The notes: generated by a model from the sequence alone, not told the origin. DNA of 64,000 nt from Bacteriovoracaceae bacterium (GCA_018649885.1 JABIHA010000020.1:62001-126000); one strand, 5' to 3'; counted from the first letter of the stretch, positions 24,782 to 34,148 are shown. Numbers and translations are program-made.

Positions 24782-25498
24782 TTAAAGAGCAGAGGCCAGA
24801 TCATCAGCACCACCTATGAGCTTTCCATCGAGGAAAACAAGTGGGTATGTACCTGAACCACCCATACTTTTAAGAGTCTGAGTGCGAACGCCTTCAATAT
24901 CAGTGAATTTAATATTTTTTTCGTTCAGTAAATCCTTGGCTCTTTTACAATGAGGACATCCTGGCTTGGAAAATACAGTTGCCCCTTCTGTTGTCACAGC
25001 TTTAGGATTAATATGAGTTAGCATTGTATCGGCATCACTTACTTCAAAGGGATCACCTGGCTTATCAGGCTCAATAAACATTTTTTCAATAACTCCGTCA
25101 TTAACAAGCATTGAATATCTCCATGACCTCTTTCCAAATCCGATGGCCGCTTTATCAACCAGCATTCCCATGCCTTGTGAAAACTCTCCATTTCCATCGG
25201 GAATTAAATTAATATTTTCAGCTTCCTGGTCTACTCCCCAAGCTTCCATAACAAATCCATCATTGACAGAGAGACAAACAATCTCATCAATTCCATTTTC
25301 TTTAAAAATGGGGGCAAGGTCATTGTAACGTGGCAGATGAGTTGACGAACATGTTGGTGTAAAAGCACCAGGTAACGAAAAAACCACTACTTTTTTTCCA
25401 GCAAATATATCTTTTGTTGATATATCTTTCCAGTCACCCTCGCGGCGAGTTTTAAAGACTACCTCTGGAATTCTTTGTCCTTCTTTGTTTTCTAACAT
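24782..25498 (-). CDS. Hybrid peroxiredoxin-glutaredoxin (Prx5-Grx, glutathione-dependent peroxidase)
   Basis: LPGAFTPTCS, SVND.FVM, RSWRYSM, C-terminal GCPHC Grx domain; start at MLENKEG after AAGGA. Confidence 0.95.
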   Translation of the reverse strand: MLENKEGQRIPEVVFKTRREGDWKDISTKDIFAGKKVVVFSLPGAFTPTCSSTHLPRYNDLAPIFKENGIDEIVCLSVNDGFVMEAWGVDQEAENINLIPDGNGEFSQGMGMLVDKAAIGFGKRSWRYSMLVNDGVIEKMFIEPDKPGDPFEVSDADTMLTHINPKAVTTEGATVFSKPGCPHCKRAKDLLNEKNIKFTDIEGVRTQTLKSMGGSGTYPLVFLDGKLIGGADDLASAL

Positions 25499-25511
25499 AA
25501 ATATTTCCTTT

Positions 25512-26504
25512 TTAAGAATTGAGAATTTTTTCTCTACGCATTCTTCGTTTTTTTGAGTTGATTGAATCCATTGCATCTACTGCAATATCCCAACCTGTAT
25601 AAATTTGGTTTTTCTTGCCCGCTTGTAAATCGCCTACTGCATAAACATTTTCAACTGAAGACTCACTAAGCTTGTGTGTTTTAACAAAGCCTCTTTCATC
25701 AAGCTCTAGCTCTAAACTCTTTGCCAGCTCGTTATAGACAATCATTCCAAGAGAAACGAAAGCAATATCTGAGGCAACTAATGTTTCATCTTCTAAAACA
25801 AAGCCGTCCAGCCTTAACTCCTTGTGGTTTCCATTGACTTCACTAATGGGAGAATATTCAACTTTTATTTCATATGCAGAGATCAGCTTCTTTATTTCTT
25901 CGGAAAACTCTTGTTTGTCACCATTGGTAATAATAGTCATATCCGCCACGTCATAACGCTCTTTCAGTAAAATCGCGACCCATGCAGCACCGTCCCCTCC
26001 TCCGATAATTGAAGTTTTTTTCCCAAGCACATGATGGCCATCACAGCGGATGCAGTAATCAACCAATTGAACATTGGCAAAAGGCAAAATAGGCTCAATT
26101 GATCCACCAATATTTGGTTGTACATCCATAACCCCAGTGGCGAGTACAACGGCAAAAACAGTTTCCTCGCCGCCCTTTTCATCTTTCACTGTAAATGTGC
26201 CATTTGAGTTTTTTATGATTTCGCTGACAGAGCTTTTCACCTGGGTGAGCAAACTTGCGAAGGGACTACTAGCAATCCATTTAAGGGTCTCCATACTTGG
26301 ATTCACAATCCCTTTTTTATAATCAAGGTGACCGGGCATATTTTCGACTTTTCCCACCCACAGGGCCCTTGATTTTTTCTTAGCTTTTGCAGAACCTGTA
26401 TAGAGAACAACCTGATCGTTATTTAGGACCCCTCGAAGCGCCGCCATTACTCCGGAAGATCCACCACCAACAACTGCTACCTTAAAATTTTCACTTTCTG
26501 ACAT
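25512..26504 (-). CDS. Thioredoxin reductase-like NAD(P)/FAD oxidoreductase
   Basis: VVGGGSSG, LATG, YCIRCDG, IIGGG, VYAVGD. Confidence 0.88.
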   Translation of the reverse strand: MSESENFKVAVVGGGSSGVMAALRGVLNNDQVVLYTGSAKAKKKSRALWVGKVENMPGHLDYKKGIVNPSMETLKWIASSPFASLLTQVKSSVSEIIKNSNGTFTVKDEKGGEETVFAVVLATGVMDVQPNIGGSIEPILPFANVQLVDYCIRCDGHHVLGKKTSIIGGGDGAAWVAILLKERYDVADMTIITNGDKQEFSEEIKKLISAYEIKVEYSPISEVNGNHKELRLDGFVLEDETLVASDIAFVSLGMIVYNELAKSLELELDERGFVKTHKLSESSVENVYAVGDLQAGKKNQIYTGWDIAVDAMDSINSKKRRMRREKILNS

Positions 26505-26636
26505 AATGATTTCCTTGTTACGGAATCCATTATCGCTTAAGTACATAAATTATTGAAATTAATTAAATCAAAGACGTCATAGCAAAAACTAATCAATACT
26601 TGTTATATATTCAAGCACTTAGGCAGTCGCAACGAA

Positions 26637-27029
26637 CTATGGCGCCATGAGCCAAGTTGTCTTACAAATAACTGGTTCATTTTCAATTAAGGGTACCAAT
26701 GCCGTGGGATCAACAACCTGAATATTAGCGCTATAAACTGAAGATCCCTTTAGCTGATTTCCATCTCCTGCAAGACTCACATTATTAGTAAAGCTTAGCT
26801 CAAGATCAAAACTCCCAACTGAGGCCATCCTTGAAATACGCGTCTCCTTTGCCTTCAATTCACCATTTATAGATAGAAATACCCCTCCAATCACCATTCC
26901 CTTGGGTGGCTCTGCTCCAAAGTCACCAAATACTGATGAATAGTGAACAGAAGGTCCGGCACAAATAGTTGAACCGGCAAATGAGTTAAAAGATATTAAA
27001 CTTAGAGCGAGTATCGCAATATATTTCAT
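26637..27029 (-). CDS. Secreted hypothetical protein
   Basis: MKYIAIL..SFA signal peptide after GGAG. Confidence 0.7.
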   Translation of the reverse strand: MKYIAILALSLISFNSFAGSTICAGPSVHYSSVFGDFGAEPPKGMVIGGVFLSINGELKAKETRISRMASVGSFDLELSFTNNVSLAGDGNQLKGSSVYSANIQVVDPTALVPLIENEPVICKTTWLMAP

Positions 27030-27295
27030 TTTTTCTCCATGGTGAAAATGACTTTCCTTCCAATCACTATATGAAAATAGATCATCTATCAAATGAAGTA
27101 ATATAATGTTGCTTTTGATAATGAAAACTCAATTACATAGCTATACAAATTTTACAGGCCAGTACCTTATAAAGAACAATTATTTATACCCACTGGAATT
27201 AAACAAATTTAATCTATGACAAATTTCTTAATTTTTTGTGTTCCACAATTTTCATATACTTTATCTATACAACGCACTTAATGAGGAGAAAAACC

Positions 27296-28597
27296 ATGAA
27301 AACAGCAAAATTAGCAATAAGCCTATTTGTTTGGGTCATTTCACTTACGTGCGGAGCAACTAATTATCAATTAACTGACGATCAAAAAGATAGTGCAGAA
27401 CTTAACTGCCAAGGATGGGCCCGCGAAAATATTCCGTATGTGGATGGGGAAGATTTTTGCAGGACTGGTTATGGATTAAGTGCAGGCGAGACCCTCGTTC
27501 CCTCTCCTGCACTTACAAGACCAACTCCCCCCGAAAAACCTAAGTGGCCAACCTATGCAGAGTATACAAATGAAGATGTATTTTTTAAAGATGGTCCCTC
27601 AGTTCCACAGGGAATGAGTAGAGCAACTGCCGCAGCAGGTGCTGTATACAAAAGAAGACAGCAGGCCTTTCAAATAGAAAACCGTGAGTACCAAAGGGAG
27701 CTTCATGCCTTTAACGATAACTTGAAACTTCCTCGTAAAATCTCAGATTTTTTTGCACTGGAAACGATGCCTCCAGCGTTTCAAAACCTTCTGAAATGCT
27801 CTCAGCTCTATAAAGGTGTCAATTCAAATAGTGTAGATCATGAAGCCTCTCTCAGATCACAATGTGATTACAGAAAACTAAATGCCAATAAAACTTATCT
27901 TGATAAACAATTCACTGCAATTTCTGAATGTGGAAAATACATGAAACAGGGAAATTACTGGAACAAAAGCCGAGTAGGAAATCTTACAATGGTTAAAGGA
28001 CAAAGAGGCTCAGTTGAAGGCTGTTTTGATAAACAACTACTTGGTGCCTTAAAACAAAAACCTCAACTTGAAGCTTGCATGACAAAAGCAAGAAAATCTC
28101 CTCTAGATGATCAAAGATCATTTCCTCTAGGTTATTGTAAGTCTATAAAAAATAGAAGCCACCTATTAAGCTTACGCTACACTGTATGTTCTGCCACACT
28201 AGATGAAGCAGGAAAATGGGATATTGAAAACGCTTTTAAATGTAATTTTGGTAATATTCATAGAGAGCTCCCTGAACTTTTGGCCCGTGACCAAAAAAGT
28301 GAATGTCTTGCTGATGGTGTTGGATGTGTTCCCGAATGCTTCAAGGGCCTTAAAGGATTTGGTTTGGCACACGAATTTAGTAAGTACTGTCCTGGACAAG
28401 TCAGATCTATCATCAGCTCTGAGATCAAAACCTGTATGAGATTGACACCAAGTCTCGACGCTTGCCTTGCAGTCAGACAGTACAACCAAAAAGACAATGG
28501 GGTAAGTAATCAAATCGTAGAAGGAGAGCAAGGACAAAAAGAAAGTCTCTACGCCAGGGGAGTAGATTTTTACCACTCAATCATGTCGAATGAATAA
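27296..28597 (+). CDS. Secreted Cys-rich hypothetical protein
   Basis: ATG after GAGGAG, signal peptide, many Cys, Pro-rich linker; hairpin at 28610-28646 downstream. Confidence 0.7.
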   Translation: MKTAKLAISLFVWVISLTCGATNYQLTDDQKDSAELNCQGWARENIPYVDGEDFCRTGYGLSAGETLVPSPALTRPTPPEKPKWPTYAEYTNEDVFFKDGPSVPQGMSRATAAAGAVYKRRQQAFQIENREYQRELHAFNDNLKLPRKISDFFALETMPPAFQNLLKCSQLYKGVNSNSVDHEASLRSQCDYRKLNANKTYLDKQFTAISECGKYMKQGNYWNKSRVGNLTMVKGQRGSVEGCFDKQLLGALKQKPQLEACMTKARKSPLDDQRSFPLGYCKSIKNRSHLLSLRYTVCSATLDEAGKWDIENAFKCNFGNIHRELPELLARDQKSECLADGVGCVPECFKGLKGFGLAHEFSKYCPGQVRSIISSEIKTCMRLTPSLDACLAVRQYNQKDNGVSNQIVEGEQGQKESLYARGVDFYHSIMSNE

Positions 28598-29450: not shown

Positions 29451-29478
29451 AAGGGTAAGTGCGATTTCACTTACCCTT
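29451..29478. terminator. Bidirectional terminator between USP gene and isonitrile operon
   Basis: AAGGGTAAGTG-CGATTT-CACTTACCCTT 11-bp stem between convergent stops. Confidence 0.7.
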
Positions 29479-29487
29479 TTTAATTGA

Positions 29488-29958
29488 CTACTTTACCATT
29501 CCAACACAGTCAGAAAGGACATACTTATCAAATACAACGGTGCTTAACTTCGGTTTAACGGCTAGGTCGATCACTCCATTACCAGAAGGTATTTTCAATT
29601 TTTCTCCGCCAACTTCAATTTCTTTCAGATCCACATACATGGAACCCTTAATGGATATATCAGGTGTACTTACGCCCGAGAAATCAAACTTTATCTGGGT
29701 AGCATCAGTGGTTTCATTTGTAAGAGAAATGTTGAACACATGAAATTGATTTCCAACAGAGGTGAGAACTCCTGAATATAGCGCTCCACCTGAGTGCCGG
29801 GCCGAAAATGAAATACTGATGGGAGTTCCACCAGAACCATTACTTAGACAGCTTACAGTGGCACTTCTTTGTTTCGTAGTAATCGCTCTAGAAATATCGA
29901 GTTCACTGGCCATGCCGGGCACTGAAATAAAAATAGCTAAAATTAAATTCTTCATCAT
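29488..29958 (-). CDS. Secreted hypothetical protein (last gene of isonitrile operon)
   Basis: Signal peptide; ATGA overlap with upstream GNAT-like gene. Confidence 0.7.
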   Translation of the reverse strand: MMKNLILAIFISVPGMASELDISRAITTKQRSATVSCLSNGSGGTPISISFSARHSGGALYSGVLTSVGNQFHVFNISLTNETTDATQIKFDFSGVSTPDISIKGSMYVDLKEIEVGGEKLKIPSGNGVIDLAVKPKLSTVVFDKYVLSDCVGMVK

Positions 29959-30599
29959 TTCTCCTTGTTTTTTGTATAAACCAAATAACGATGTACCTGG
30001 TCAGCATAATTGATTATTTTTTTTGAATGAGTCCAAAAAAAACATTGTTTTGAACCACCCTCGTGCGCCACATTGTTGACTAGCTCATGCAACTTTCGAC
30101 TATATTTTTGATTTCTATAGTTTTGGTGTACCACTCCACTTAACAAAACGGCCTCCCCTTTTGTGGTTCCGATAGTGACACAACTAATAGGAATATCATT
30201 TTCTAAAATATATCCCACTTTAAACTCAGCACTCAGATCAGGAAGAAAAGTCATCAGCCCTTTAAGAAAATCAACATCTTTTTTAAATCCATCATCCAAT
30301 AGGCTCCAGTACGCAGCTCTTTTGCTGGCCTCACTCAAGCTCTCTACCAAAAACTCGTCCCTTTTCTTTGATGGCCTTGTTGTAAAACTTGCCAAGTAAA
30401 AATTATTTCGTACTGTATATCCAGAGAATTCTTCAACGGGCTCCTCTAGCGCCTGAATCCTGTTAAAGTGATCCCCCCCAGTTTGCTGAAACCTTGGTGA
30501 CAAGATAGGATCTTTCATCTGGGGAACAAAGAAACAATTCTCCTGAACTCTAAAATTCACATAGGCTTGATTCCAATAGGAAATCATGGGGTGGTTCAT
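29955..30599 (-). CDS. GNAT-like acyltransferase (divergent)
   Basis: VLLSGVVHQNYRNQKYSRKL resembles GNAT motif A; ATGA overlap with P450 stop. Confidence 0.6.
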   Translation of the reverse strand: MNHPMISYWNQAYVNFRVQENCFFVPQMKDPILSPRFQQTGGDHFNRIQALEEPVEEFSGYTVRNNFYLASFTTRPSKKRDEFLVESLSEASKRAAYWSLLDDGFKKDVDFLKGLMTFLPDLSAEFKVGYILENDIPISCVTIGTTKGEAVLLSGVVHQNYRNQKYSRKLHELVNNVAHEGGSKQCFFWTHSKKIINYADQVHRYLVYTKNKEK

Positions 30600-31816
30600 T
30601 GCACTTTTTCCAATATCAACTGATCAAATCCAGAAAATGAAAGTGAATAGTGATCTCTACTGGCCATTTTCACCTTTAGGTGCGGATACTTGGTAATTAA
30701 GGTTTTAAAAAGTAAATTCATTTCCATTCTTGCTAGTTTTGCTCCTATGCAAAAATGAGCTCCATAACCATAGGCCATATGTTGAATGCCTTTTCTGTGT
30801 ATATTTATTTGCTCTCCATGGTCAAGACCCGTTCGATTGACACAATGATTTGAAATAAAAACGGTATCTCCTGCTTTAATATGTTGGTCCCCTATTTGTG
30901 TGGCCTGTCTTGCAACTCTAAAAATAAATGTAACAGCAGGATCAAAACGGTTATATTCTTCCAGAGCATTGGAAATTAGTGATGGATTGTTTTTCAATGC
31001 AATTTGGTCTTCCAAACTACTGGCCAGTAAGAACATATTATTACACATTTGATCAGTAGTGGTGACCTGTCCTGCTACCAGCATCATAATAGCTTGTGAA
31101 ATGATTTCGCCATCTGACAAATTAAACCTATCTTGGGCCTTGAGTAGCGAGGAGATGTAGTCTTCACCAGGCATTTGTTTTCTTTTTGCAATAAGCTCAG
31201 AAAAATAAGTTTTTAAGGTAGATGCAGCTTTATTGACTTTAATGCCGTCCTCATTTTCATAGCCAGTCCCCCCTCCGAAAAATGCAGTCATGGCGATGGA
31301 GTTATTATAGAATTCCACGCGGTCTTGTTCAGGAATACAAAATAGGTCTGCCAAAACAGTAGATGGAAGTCGCTTGGCCACATCATCACAAAAATTTACA
31401 TCTTTTTTTGATAGTGCACTTTCTAAAAGGGAATCTACGCTTATGGCAACTTTACTTCGAAACTTATCTAAAACGTGATCTTCAAAACCAAGCTGGGCGG
31501 CCTGTCTTTTCCTGCTATGATCTTCTCCATCACTCATTACCATCATTTTACTAACTACCGAAAAAAAGTCTTCAATCAGTGACAAATCCATATTGGGCAT
31601 TCTTGAGATAAAAAAGCTAGATCTATCCGCACTTAGTAGTGGGTTTTTGAGTGCCTCCATTGCCTCCCCTAAGTCAGTGACCACATGAAAATTACCAGCA
31701 GGCCAAAAATAAGGACGATTTTCAAAATTCACATGCCTAGAAAAATCATTGGGAAAGGTTGCAACATTTGCTTCTCTTTTAAATTGATGGAATGATTGCC
31801 CAGTTCTTTGTCTCAT
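30596..31816 (-). CDS. Cytochrome P450
   Basis: H.RKR, I-helix AGQVTT, EYNR (ExxR), heme motif YGYGAHFCIG. Confidence 0.95.
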   Translation of the reverse strand: MRQRTGQSFHQFKREANVATFPNDFSRHVNFENRPYFWPAGNFHVVTDLGEAMEALKNPLLSADRSSFFISRMPNMDLSLIEDFFSVVSKMMVMSDGEDHSRKRQAAQLGFEDHVLDKFRSKVAISVDSLLESALSKKDVNFCDDVAKRLPSTVLADLFCIPEQDRVEFYNNSIAMTAFFGGGTGYENEDGIKVNKAASTLKTYFSELIAKRKQMPGEDYISSLLKAQDRFNLSDGEIISQAIMMLVAGQVTTTDQMCNNMFLLASSLEDQIALKNNPSLISNALEEYNRFDPAVTFIFRVARQATQIGDQHIKAGDTVFISNHCVNRTGLDHGEQINIHRKGIQHMAYGYGAHFCIGAKLARMEMNLLFKTLITKYPHLKVKMASRDHYSLSFSGFDQLILEKVQ

Positions 31817-31828
31817 TTTAGGTTCCTT

Positions 31829-32539
31829 TTATAGTACTTGAACTCTTTTGAAGCTCCTTCTAAGGTTTTCACCAAGACTATGCCTGCCGTGGATATAAGA
31901 AAAATTATCTACAATAAGAAGATCACCTTTTTTCCAAGTATGCTGGTAGATATGGTTTTCATCTCTCAGTAATTCCTCAATTCTCAAACACAAATTCTCA
32001 TTTCCTGAGAGGATGGTTCTAGTCACTGGATTTTTTTTGCTCTGAACGGGCAGAGCAAAACGAAGTATTTTTTCTCCAGTATCGGGGTGATTTTGTAAAA
32101 CAGGCACTTCTATGGAGCCTCCATAGTGGGCCAATTTTTCTGTCTTATATTCTAATTTCAGCTTTTGAAGTTGTTTTTTTTCATCACCAGAAAGCGCATG
32201 GTAAACCCCGCGGGTATCACAGAACATCCCCTCGCCTCCCGCACCACCAGAAGATTCAGTACAAAAAAAGATCAAGTACTTTGGCTCTTTTAAAAAAGCA
32301 CCATCCCAATGAAAAGGAACCTCTTCTTCTGAGAATAAGTAGTTTTTTGCTGAGGCGCTGAACTTCATTTCCATTATAGGTCCGAAATCCCATTCTAGTA
32401 GTGCCTTGTCTTTGCGTGAACTTAAAGTATGGGCCAATTCGAGAAGCTCTTGGTCATTAAAGCTTTGATTTTCAAGACAAACAATTCCTTTTGTGGTGAG
32501 TTCATTTGTGGTAAAATTAAAATTACTCGAAGTAGACAT
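31829..32539 (-). CDS. pvcB: Fe(II)/2-oxoglutarate dioxygenase, TauD family (PvcB/IsnB-like)
   Basis: LLEWDFG, VPFHWDG, W..GDLLIVDN...IHGR; overlaps the isonitrile synthase gene. Confidence 0.88.
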   Translation of the reverse strand: MSTSSNFNFTTNELTTKGIVCLENQSFNDQELLELAHTLSSRKDKALLEWDFGPIMEMKFSASAKNYLFSEEEVPFHWDGAFLKEPKYLIFFCTESSGGAGGEGMFCDTRGVYHALSGDEKKQLQKLKLEYKTEKLAHYGGSIEVPVLQNHPDTGEKILRFALPVQSKKNPVTRTILSGNENLCLRIEELLRDENHIYQHTWKKGDLLIVDNFSYIHGRHSLGENLRRSFKRVQVL

Positions 32540-33452
32540 ATTTTCCACCCAACTTCTTCTCCACCGCACCCATTTCAAGAGCTTCCCTTTTTTTCATCAG
32601 TTGATACTCTCCATCTCTTTTAACAACCACATTGTGCCAGGGCGTTGCCCACCTTTCTGAGGACGGAACAAGTTTCACTCCAAATTTTTTGTGCTCGATT
32701 GGATATGGGTGAATAGACAATCGTAGTGCCTCTTCAAAACAACTCGATAGCAGCTTATCCCAAGCGCCGGAACGTTGTATTAACTGATAGGCAAGGGTCT
32801 TGGATTCTTTTGCAACTTGATTTCTTGATAGATCACCTCGAAGAACATTCATATCCTCTTTTAAAAATCGGTGGAGTCCATTAAAAATATTTCTGTACTG
32901 ATAGTCTTCTCTTACCTTAAACTTAATATCCTCAATACTTTGTGAAAAATCATGACAGAACTCTTCTCTCATTGATTTGTAGCTCATGCTATTTTTGTAG
33001 TAATCATCAAGGTCATAGGTCTTTAAAAAAGAAAAACCATGAATTTCAATAATTTCGGAAATTTTGCTCTTATAGAGCTGTAGATCGTAATCACTTACAA
33101 AAACAATATCATTAAAAACACGCCCATCTGAGCAGATGGTGATTTCAATGCCTGGTCCATAAATTTTAGAAACTTCATGGCAAAAATCATTGAGAGTTTT
33201 CAAGGCCAGAATTTCACCTAAATCTGGAAGCGGGCCACTAGTCTTTTCTGGGTTTGAGCTCTTGGCCGGAAAAGCAGGAAGAATAAAAGTTAGCTTTTTG
33301 TCCTCAAGACATTGTTTGTACATCTTTCTATAAAGAGGAACACTCCAGTAGTCGATGTCGCCTGCTTTGCTTTCTGGTGTATTACTTAACTTTAATAGTA
33401 GAAAGAAAATCGTGCTTGCTAAATTTTCTTCACTTAAAATTGCTTGTTCCAT
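32523..33452 (-). CDS. pvcA: Isonitrile (isocyanide) synthase, PvcA/IsnA/DIT1 family
   Basis: FILPAFPAKS.N, LPDLGE, ICSDGRVF.D, LRLSIHP, KFG, WATPWH. Confidence 0.95.
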   Translation of the reverse strand: MEQAILSEENLASTIFFLLLKLSNTPESKAGDIDYWSVPLYRKMYKQCLEDKKLTFILPAFPAKSSNPEKTSGPLPDLGEILALKTLNDFCHEVSKIYGPGIEITICSDGRVFNDIVFVSDYDLQLYKSKISEIIEIHGFSFLKTYDLDDYYKNSMSYKSMREEFCHDFSQSIEDIKFKVREDYQYRNIFNGLHRFLKEDMNVLRGDLSRNQVAKESKTLAYQLIQRSGAWDKLLSSCFEEALRLSIHPYPIEHKKFGVKLVPSSERWATPWHNVVVKRDGEYQLMKKREALEMGAVEKKLGGKYVYFE

Positions 33453-33529: not shown

Positions 33530-33544
33530 ATAGTCAATGCCTAT
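33530..33544. promoter_or_regulatory. LysR/OxyR-type T-N11-A box upstream of the isonitrile operon
   Basis: ATAG-tcaatgc-CTAT; adjacent ATAAG-N7-CTTAT at 33512-33528. Confidence 0.45.
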
Positions 33545-33620: not shown

Positions 33621-34148
33621 CTACTCAGTCCAAGATCCGCCTGTACTGGTTTGCGAGCCTCTTCTTCCCCAATAATCAGAATTTCCATTGTATAAATTTG
33701 GGGTTTGGGGTTTTTCCCTATAGCTACAATCAAGCCTTTTGAAAACTTGAGTGGAGTTTCGAAGTAGTTTTACCTTTCCAGCACCATCAATACTAAAAGT
33801 GATTTCTTCACTTGGAGCACTCTCATAACTAATTCCTTCATCTATATAAGCACCTAGACTCTCCACTATGTCTCCCCAAACCTTGATTCCGAGAGCTTTA
33901 CACACATAATTAAAATCTCCAGAAGAATCAAGTTGTAGATCACTTTCAATACCCTCAATTTTAATTCTAAGTACGGGTGGAATAAAGGTAAGCTGGCTAA
34001 GATAAACTTGCTCGAGACTATTGTAACTTAATGCTACTATCTCATAGCATTCATCGCTAACTTCAAAACAGGCCATTTTGGTCTCTTCGGTATTACCAAA
34101 TAACTGGGTACTTGTGCTTAAAAGTAGTAAAATCAGTGCTAGCTTCAT
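33621..34148 (-). CDS. Secreted hypothetical protein
   Basis: Signal peptide, RBS GGGGG. Confidence 0.7.
   Translation of the reverse strand: MKLALILLLLSTSTQLFGNTEETKMACFEVSDECYEIVALSYNSLEQVYLSQLTFIPPVLRIKIEGIESDLQLDSSGDFNYVCKALGIKVWGDIVESLGAYIDEGISYESAPSEEITFSIDGAGKVKLLRNSTQVFKRLDCSYREKPQTPNLYNGNSDYWGRRGSQTSTGGSWTE

Follow-up and report, generated by a model that had tools for sequence, protein, structure and literature searches.

What does a predatory bacterium make with an isonitrile synthase, a desaturating dioxygenase and a cytochrome P450 encoded one after another? The question is raised by an operon at positions 29488-33452 of a 64,000-nucleotide (nt) stretch of the genome of a Bacteriovoracaceae bacterium (GCA_018649885.1 JABIHA010000020.1:62001-126000), the whole of which is called the window here. 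A first-pass annotation had described the operon as xanthocillin-like and its host as a probable predator. The latter is borne out, as the named relatives of the window's family are Bacteriovoracaceae, a family of bacterial predators. The operon itself is real and intact. Its synthase and dioxygenase probably use L-tryptophan, judging from the residues of the dioxygenase pocket. We tentatively propose that the P450 joins two molecules of the resulting indolyl vinyl isonitrile to a bis-indole diisonitrile, a complete route that is predicted from sequence and that we hold at somewhat less than even confidence.

Operon structure and substrate of the synthase-dioxygenase pair

Open reading frame (ORF) calling on the window gave five genes, all co-directional on the minus strand. 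In order of transcription they encode an isonitrile synthase of the IsnA/PvcA type (32523..33452, 309 amino acids, aa), an Fe(II)/2-oxoglutarate desaturase of the IsnB/AmbI3 type (31829..32578, 249 aa from a TTG start or 236 aa from an ATG at 32539), a cytochrome P450 of an uncharacterised family (30596..31816, 406 aa), a GNAT-fold protein consisting of a short N-terminal half-domain and a full GNAT domain (29955..30599, 214 aa) and a small protein with a signal-peptide-like N-terminus, presumed to be secreted (29488..29958, 156 aa). The synthase and dioxygenase genes (pvcA and pvcB) overlap by 56 nt with the TTG start or 17 nt with the ATG start, 12 nt separate the dioxygenase gene from the P450 gene, and ATGA overlaps occur at the P450/GNAT and GNAT/secreted gene junctions. 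This close packing is as the first-pass annotation had it, and the five gene assignments likewise stood up to Pfam, motif searches and structure models. The synthase matches PF05141 at 241 bits (cut-off 26.4), the dioxygenase TauD at 109 bits and the P450 its own Pfam family at 62 bits, with heme ligand Cys356, ExxR and the I-helix AGQVTTTDQ recognisable in the last. The GNAT gene reaches only E 0.1 in Pfam, under the cut-off, and the secreted protein has no family match in Pfam or NCBIfam. None of the five genes has a second copy in the genome, which is 5.4 Mb long and 92% complete. Recent transfer of the cluster was rejected on GC content, which is 38.3% in cluster and genome alike.

The three-gene core recurs elsewhere. 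At loci with an orthologue of the P450, both other genes lie upstream in the same order in 45 of 47 cases, and in the remaining two the contig breaks off at the P450 gene; the arrangement is therefore far beyond chance. Within the window's family, the synthase occurs in 39 of 201 genomes and the P450 cassette in 24 of those 39, the window included. The 38 other family loci comprise 23 of synthase-dioxygenase-P450 type, nine with a flavin monooxygenase (called by Rossmann motif, two being confirmed by Pfam), five cut by contig ends and one, in genome G218, with neither. In Legionellaceae, a synthase was matched in 35 of the 149 genomes scored, and the 19 loci examined divide into 12 of the P450 type and seven of the monooxygenase type. 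Other Bdellovibrionota and a cyanobacterium have the triad too. A protein search with the P450 returned at least 400 sequence clusters at E 1e-60, its orthologues include cultured Bacteriovorax, and in a sample of the phylum matches at E 1e-30 came from 20 of 241 genomes and reached orthologue level in 18 of the 20. The sister cassette, in which a tyrosine-type synthase-dioxygenase pair is followed by a flavin monooxygenase, was observed at loci L029-L036 and L038 and, in Legionellaceae, at L068-L071, L074, L081 and L082. One genome, G669, carries both cassettes.

The evidence for tryptophan comes from the dioxygenase. Among solved structures, this enzyme is closest to PIsnB and PvcB, and its iron triad H90-D92-H230 is kept together with R245 and W63, aligning with H101, D103, H250, R265 and W74 of PIsnB. 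A published alignment separates the tryptophan-using AmbI3/WelI3/HpiI3 and an environmental DNA (eDNA) IsnB from the tyrosine-using PvcB at five sites (Micallef 2014, PMC4236562). With W-D-FG, NYLF, PFHWDG-A-F, GG-E and RF-A, the window enzyme has the tryptophan form at all five; PvcB is different at every one, and the window enzyme also differs from PIsnB at the pocket motifs. According to passages of the PIsnB study, the phenyl pocket of that enzyme is lined by Met105 and Tyr106, replacement of M105-Y106-K107 by Ala-Phe-Ala abolished stabilisation by tyrosine isonitrile, and the tyrosine vinyl-isonitrile enzymes of the rhabduscin and xanthocillin pathways carry Lys/Arg at 107 and Asn/His at 188 (Kim 2022, PMC9467999). 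The window enzyme has Ala94-Phe95, Leu96 and Ala175; the Met-Tyr pocket and both of the other tyrosine-type residues are missing.

The same residues sort the relatives by their third gene. Ala-Phe is present in each of the 46 P450-linked dioxygenases, which also score higher to a hapalindole-cluster I3 than to a tyrosine-type enzyme, a combination found in none of 15 monooxygenase-linked dioxygenases; at the pocket, 15 of 16 monooxygenase-linked enzymes have Met-Tyr and one Met-Phe. The window dioxygenase is 38.5% identical to this I3 reference, which was recognised by the duplicated synthases, prenyltransferase and 1-deoxy-D-xylulose 5-phosphate (DXP) synthase of its cluster, and 30% identical to the tyrosine-type enzyme. 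In quick trees built without PvcB, PIsnB and XanB, the monooxygenase-linked dioxygenases split off as a clade of their own with Shimodaira-Hasegawa-like approximate likelihood ratio (SH-aLRT) support of 100, and the corresponding support in the synthase tree was 99. One monooxygenase-linked dioxygenase scored 263 bits to PvcB and 251 to PIsnB; the window protein reached 78 and 110 bits, respectively.

The synthase leans the same way. Its six conserved motifs are present when aligned to PvcA and to the published alignment (Micallef 2014). It reaches 193.7 bits against the L-tyrosine equivalog NF045653, below the 600-bit cut-off, and is not a member. Its NGLHRF motif resembles AmbI2 rather than PvcA, and it scores 216 bits to a hapalindole synthase versus 190 bits to a tyrosine-type synthase. 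These comparisons incline us to a tryptophan-type synthase.

The cytochrome P450 and its possible product

If tryptophan is the substrate, we put coupling by the P450, rather than oxygen insertion, at an even chance, judging from its I-helix. The enzyme is about 30% identical to any solved P450. Among 167 family sequences (the locus set plus search matches, some counted twice), 86 positions are conserved at 97% or more; Cys356 and E287/R290 are present in all 167 and Thr252 in 166. The acid-alcohol pair of P450s (for background see PMC9112060) is incomplete throughout, since position 251 is Val in 116 sequences, Ala in 48 and Ile in three, and never an acid. P450 dimerases of tryptophan diketopiperazines, which act by radical coupling, retain the alcohol but carry valine instead of the acid (Wei 2024, PMC11573659), and Val251-Thr252 of the window enzyme is the same combination. 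NascB, AspB, NasF5053 and PtmB are like the window P450 in this valine and alcohol and in an indole substrate whose biosynthetic gene lies alongside; for the window, this substrate is predicted. Unlike it, they act on a cyclodipeptide, and no close kinship to them appeared among the best 60 solved matches. A coupling role for the P450, as suggested in the first-pass annotation, gains some support from the I-helix and from this precedent, while the nearest solved P450s speak for oxygenation.

In the proposed pathway, the synthase and dioxygenase would convert L-tryptophan to 3-(2-isocyanovinyl)indole, with ribulose 5-phosphate supplying the carbon, as it does for AmbI1-3, and with oxidative decarboxylation by the dioxygenase to the vinyl isonitrile, as in all characterised tryptophan-type enzymes. 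The P450 would then abstract hydrogen from the indole N-H, and the radical would spread to the isonitrile-bearing carbon. By analogy, this step would correspond to the phenoxyl radical in the proposed xanthocillin route. Two radicals would join and tautomerise to 1,4-bis(indol-3-yl)-2,3-diisocyanobutadiene (C22H14N4), other linkages being possible, and the product would be a bis-indole diisonitrile, the indole counterpart of xanthocillin. The electrons would come from ferredoxins encoded elsewhere; no redox partner is present in the cassette, and a motif scan found ferredoxin-like ORFs elsewhere in the genome. The GNAT protein may, as an optional step, acylate or bind what the P450 makes.

Several observations weigh against this proposal. 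The motif rule that separates tryptophan from tyrosine enzymes is founded on two characterised tryptophan lineages and two tyrosine enzymes, and the split of 46 versus 16 dioxygenases counts as one phylogenetic event instead of 62. A Hymenobacter plasmid cluster (L110 3791-8800), which encodes a 544-aa synthase, an elongated dioxygenase of 588 aa and a flavin adenine dinucleotide (FAD) oxidoreductase, has a dioxygenase that combines tyrosine-type and tryptophan-type motifs. The substrate signal of the synthases is weaker, 38 of 45 being closer to the hapalindole synthases. Further, trpA was not found in the 92%-complete genome, so tryptophan would need to be imported, from prey or medium. For the P450, the best solved relatives are the ordinary oxygenases BioI, PksS and CYP109-like enzymes, and no entry named dimerase stands among these best 60 of 354-402 matches. 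Asp255, one helical turn beyond the pair, is invariant and could replace the missing acid. The I-helix acid is also missing from some plain hydroxylases, such as EryK, and from a Nostoc plasmid P450 that has no synthase nearby; at 33% identity, the latter is the best match on plasmids, where no orthologue was found. This Nostoc gene (L109 7902-9137) adjoins an extracytoplasmic function (ECF) sigma/anti-sigma pair. Finally, the tyrosine-type sister clusters use a flavin ring hydroxylase as their third gene, which suggests oxygenation for that slot.

In the main alternative, tryptophan is still the substrate and the P450 is a monooxygenase that hydroxylates or epoxidises the indolyl vinyl isonitrile, the GNAT protein, where present, acetylating the new hydroxyl to an acetoxy-indolyl vinyl isonitrile for storage or self-protection. 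We consider this somewhat unlikely. In its favour, a flavin aromatic hydroxylase is the third gene at nine of 38 family and seven of 19 Legionellaceae loci, Thr252 and Asp255 could still deliver protons, and the nearest solved P450s (best 60 of 354-402) are oxygenases. Action on a group made by the P450 would also fit the position of the GNAT gene, which in every one of the 10 full-length cases of the family stands behind the P450 gene and in G218 has relocated together with it. However, the family-wide loss of the acid residue matches the indole dimerases, the GNAT gene is missing from 15 of 23 family and 12 of 12 Legionellaceae clusters, and its product has lost the CoA-loop glycine in the window's subclade. 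Self-protection takes another form if the monomer is the end product. The P450 would then bind the monomer through its heme or oxidise it to a harmless isocyanate or amine, to be capped by the GNAT protein. Isonitriles ligate P450 heme iron (PMC10475101), broad antibiotic activity is known for the indolyl vinyl isonitrile monomer (PMC5947517), neither exporter nor hydratase is in the cassette, and the P450 and GNAT genes of G218 persist ~585 kb from the synthase pair. Such a role nevertheless appears improbable to us, as tryptophan-type synthase pairs without this P450 exist in hapalindole clusters and at other cyanobacterial loci, and the ~86 near-invariant P450 residues, many of which lie in regions of substrate recognition, are consistent with a catalytic pocket of defined shape.

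The view of the first-pass annotation, in which tyrosine would be used and two molecules of 4-hydroxystyryl isonitrile would be joined by the P450 to give xanthocillin or a closely related compound, draws on a match of all three activities to the proposed fungal route and would suit the coupling-type I-helix. The genome also has a chorismate synthase (C20:175067-176152) and a prephenate dehydrogenase (C20:179927-180319), and trpA was not found. Single substitutions at the K107 and N188 sites left the products unswitched (Kim 2022, PMC9467999), so motif rules are imperfect. In contrast, the pocket is of the tryptophan type at five of five sites, with Leu96 and Ala175 in place of the Lys/Arg and Asn/His of tyrosine enzymes, PIsnB carrying the Ala-Phe-Ala substitution was no longer stabilised by ligand, and the tyrosine-type enzymes of the window's own family form a separate clade linked to monooxygenases. 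We rejected the tyrosine reading on these grounds and regard it as having only a small chance of being right. Since the core appears to be of the tryptophan type, the operon would be xanthocillin-like in its logic and outside the xanthocillin route.

Accessory genes, regulation and flanking sequence

The GNAT protein was modelled with a mean predicted local distance difference test (pLDDT) score of 94. It gave a Foldseek match at E 1e-7 and aligned with MshD at Z 12.6 and a root-mean-square deviation (rmsd) of 4.3 over 178 residues. In its R/Q-x-x-G-x-G/A acetyl-coenzyme A (CoA) loop, the Arg is kept and the glycine replaced, the glycine being kept in five of 11 aligned members. The window's GNAT subclade has lost this glycine, and acyltransferase activity is putative. 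The gene lies behind the P450 gene in eight of 23 family P450 clusters and in none of the 12 Legionellaceae clusters. A profile search gave matches in 14 of 200 other family genomes. Ten lie directly behind a P450 gene, including those of G218 and of G201, whose cluster is split by a contig break; the other four are longer and weak and have different contexts. In G218, the P450 and GNAT genes are separated by the above ~585 kb from the synthase pair and its LysR gene (L053, L092). Seven of the eight non-self matches in the protein database appear to be paired with a P450 match, which is circumstantial, and a metagenome scan returned the identical copy only. The GNAT gene is an optional partner that travels with the P450 gene in a minority of clusters. 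In five GNAT-less clusters of the family (L040, L049, L058, L060, L061), the P450 gene is followed by an ORF of ~235 aa whose N-terminus is similar among them.

The secreted protein is predicted to be an eight-stranded beta-barrel (pLDDT 75) with an invariant Cys37/Cys151 pair. Across 35 aligned members, no His, Met or Cys beyond this pair is conserved, and a few structural residues are kept. The protein had no Foldseek match at E 0.001 and Atlas matches below 0.9; a wide structure search returned generic eight-stranded barrels only, the best being OmpA (Z 10.6, rmsd 2.7, 108 residues aligned). Its gene is present in three of 23 family P450 clusters and in one more distant cluster, with 45 representative matches in its family. 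It lies apart from the cluster in G091 and G122, both of which bear the cluster, and was not found in four other GNAT-bearing genomes. The suggestion that it serves as a carrier or in self-protection found no support, and a role as copper or product carrier was rejected, given the lack of conserved metal ligands and the generic barrel matches. From its sequence and distribution, it would seem to be a loosely linked optional passenger or partner.

A divergent LysR gene precedes the synthase in most relatives; this is not so in the window. A candidate operator, the LysR-type dyad box ATAG-N7-CTAT, is present at 33530..33544 on the minus strand, 92 nt upstream of the synthase start. Related boxes occur at -93, -92, -87, -87 and -91 in L044, L037, L054, L062 and L064, respectively, and ATA-N9-TAT was found in 47 of 67 upstream regions versus 16.7 expected from shuffles. 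The genome also contains an orphan LysR gene (G000:C57:113093-113974) whose product is 51-59% identical to the cluster regulators of L044, L054, L037 and L062. A related dyad was seen upstream of the orphan gene itself. Control by a LysR-type regulator has a precedent in PtxR of the Pseudomonas pvc operon (PMC3639982). The box is likely an operator for the LysR protein encoded elsewhere, which would control the operon in trans. A sigma-70 promoter scan was uninformative, with 14 sites versus 17 expected.

At its other end, the operon was said to be closed by a terminator. The 11-pair hairpin at 29451..29478, which separates the operon from the convergent usp gene, is real (z -5.4; none of 200 shuffles was equally stable). 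Its U-tract faces the other strand: a terminator scan scores it on the plus strand only, as the end of the usp gene, and few U residues follow it on the operon strand. It is possibly bidirectional, and we infer that it may terminate the operon as well. Four RNA runs are listed, one with a 0.06 share. In two of the runs, one 272-nt contig of depth 2 covers 30462-30733 and spans the P450/GNAT junction; such a contig does not reveal the strand or establish a single transcript, and it may stem from carried-over DNA.

Upstream of the synthase, the 175-aa ORF at 33621-34148 has no family and no match in the relatives' loci that were compared, and stands outside the proposed system. It is one of three flanking ORFs whose products begin with signal-peptide-like sequences and match no family in Pfam or NCBIfam, the others being at 27236-28597 (453 aa, cysteine-rich) and 26637-27092 (151 aa). 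A peroxiredoxin-glutaredoxin hybrid gene adjoins a thioredoxin-reductase-like gene at 24782-26546.

Relation to known isonitrile systems

The first-pass annotation had raised the novelty of this architecture. The core triad was already noted in Legionella in 2016, where a P450 and a helix-turn-helix gene always accompany isnAB in the genomes studied; passages of that report give no substrate or product (Tobias 2016, PMC5126622). The window matches the Legionella isnA-isnB-P450 cluster (cluster L) in the order of its three genes, and the Legionellaceae P450s are 46-50% identical to its own and their dioxygenases of the tryptophan type. Unlike the Legionella clusters, the window has no adjacent helix-turn-helix regulator gene, the 175-aa ORF taking the upstream position. 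Its LysR gene is on contig C57 instead of being divergent, and it has the GNAT and secreted genes, which occur at none of 12 Legionellaceae loci. In the literature searched we found no characterised product of a bacterial isonitrile synthase plus P450, although prior description in subscription journals is possible, and no paper on isocyanide synthase and Bdellovibrio; PMC13647977 and PMC11656739 likewise yielded nothing pertinent.

Among characterised systems, the core is like the eDNA IsnA/IsnB and AmbI1-3/WelI1-3/HpiI1-3 in its synthase motifs and in all five dioxygenase pocket motifs. It differs from the hapalindole clusters in having a dedicated P450 and no prenyltransferase, duplicated synthase, trp or isoprenoid genes. 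Cyanobacteria also carry tryptophan-like synthase/dioxygenase pairs outside hapalindole clusters, followed by other enzymes (L102 4743-9742, L108 5294-10282, L103 4812-10467, L067); two of these are second copies in genomes with a duplicated-synthase cluster. Divergent fused synthase-dioxygenase proteins of 609-641 aa were seen in cyanobacteria as well, in varied contexts (L104-L107), and the HWDG pattern was not found in them. Paerucumarin (pvcABCD, PtxR) and rhabduscin/byelyankacin clusters share PvcA/PvcB homologues and LysR-type control with the window. In contrast to the window, they have a tyrosine-type pocket and flavin monooxygenases or glycosyltransferases as tailoring genes. Fungal xanthocillin biosynthesis pairs a synthase-dioxygenase with a dimerising P450, for which oxidative dimerisation has been proposed (Lim 2018, PMC5974471). 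The combination of synthase, desaturase and P450 is common to the window, to this pathway (XanB/XanG) and to yeast Dit1/Dit2. The fungal route, however, is tyrosine-derived, its synthase and dioxygenase are fused, and a methyltransferase and an isocyanide hydratase are present, whereas the window has two separate genes and neither additional enzyme among the five genes or their neighbours. The window P450 resembles bacterial soluble P450s, in a comparison that covered enzymes other than XanG and Dit2.

The cassette is thus common, yet without a known product in the literature searched. The bis-indole proposal, together with its oxygenation alternative, predicts that three small genes, which could be expressed in a laboratory host, yield either a bis-indole diisonitrile of new scaffold or an oxidised indole isonitrile that would also be new, and the Ala-Phe versus Met-Tyr rule after HWDG could sort bacterial isonitrile clusters by substrate. 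If the proposal is true, the P450 would tolerate a heme-binding substrate, and the pathway would be a bacterial, tryptophan-based parallel to fungal xanthocillin. By analogy, the product may be antibacterial or bind metal or heme, and would be made from prey-derived tryptophan during predation; the copper chelation or antibiotic action suggested in the first-pass annotation is likewise plausible by analogy. More tentatively still, Bdellovibrionota, Legionellaceae and some cyanobacteria may share a three-gene route to undescribed bis-indole diisonitriles, through a new radical-coupling P450 family acting on a free isonitrile. For the predatory bacteria among them, this would mean a defined small-molecule product, a LysR-controlled weapon or metal scavenger derived from the tryptophan of their prey.

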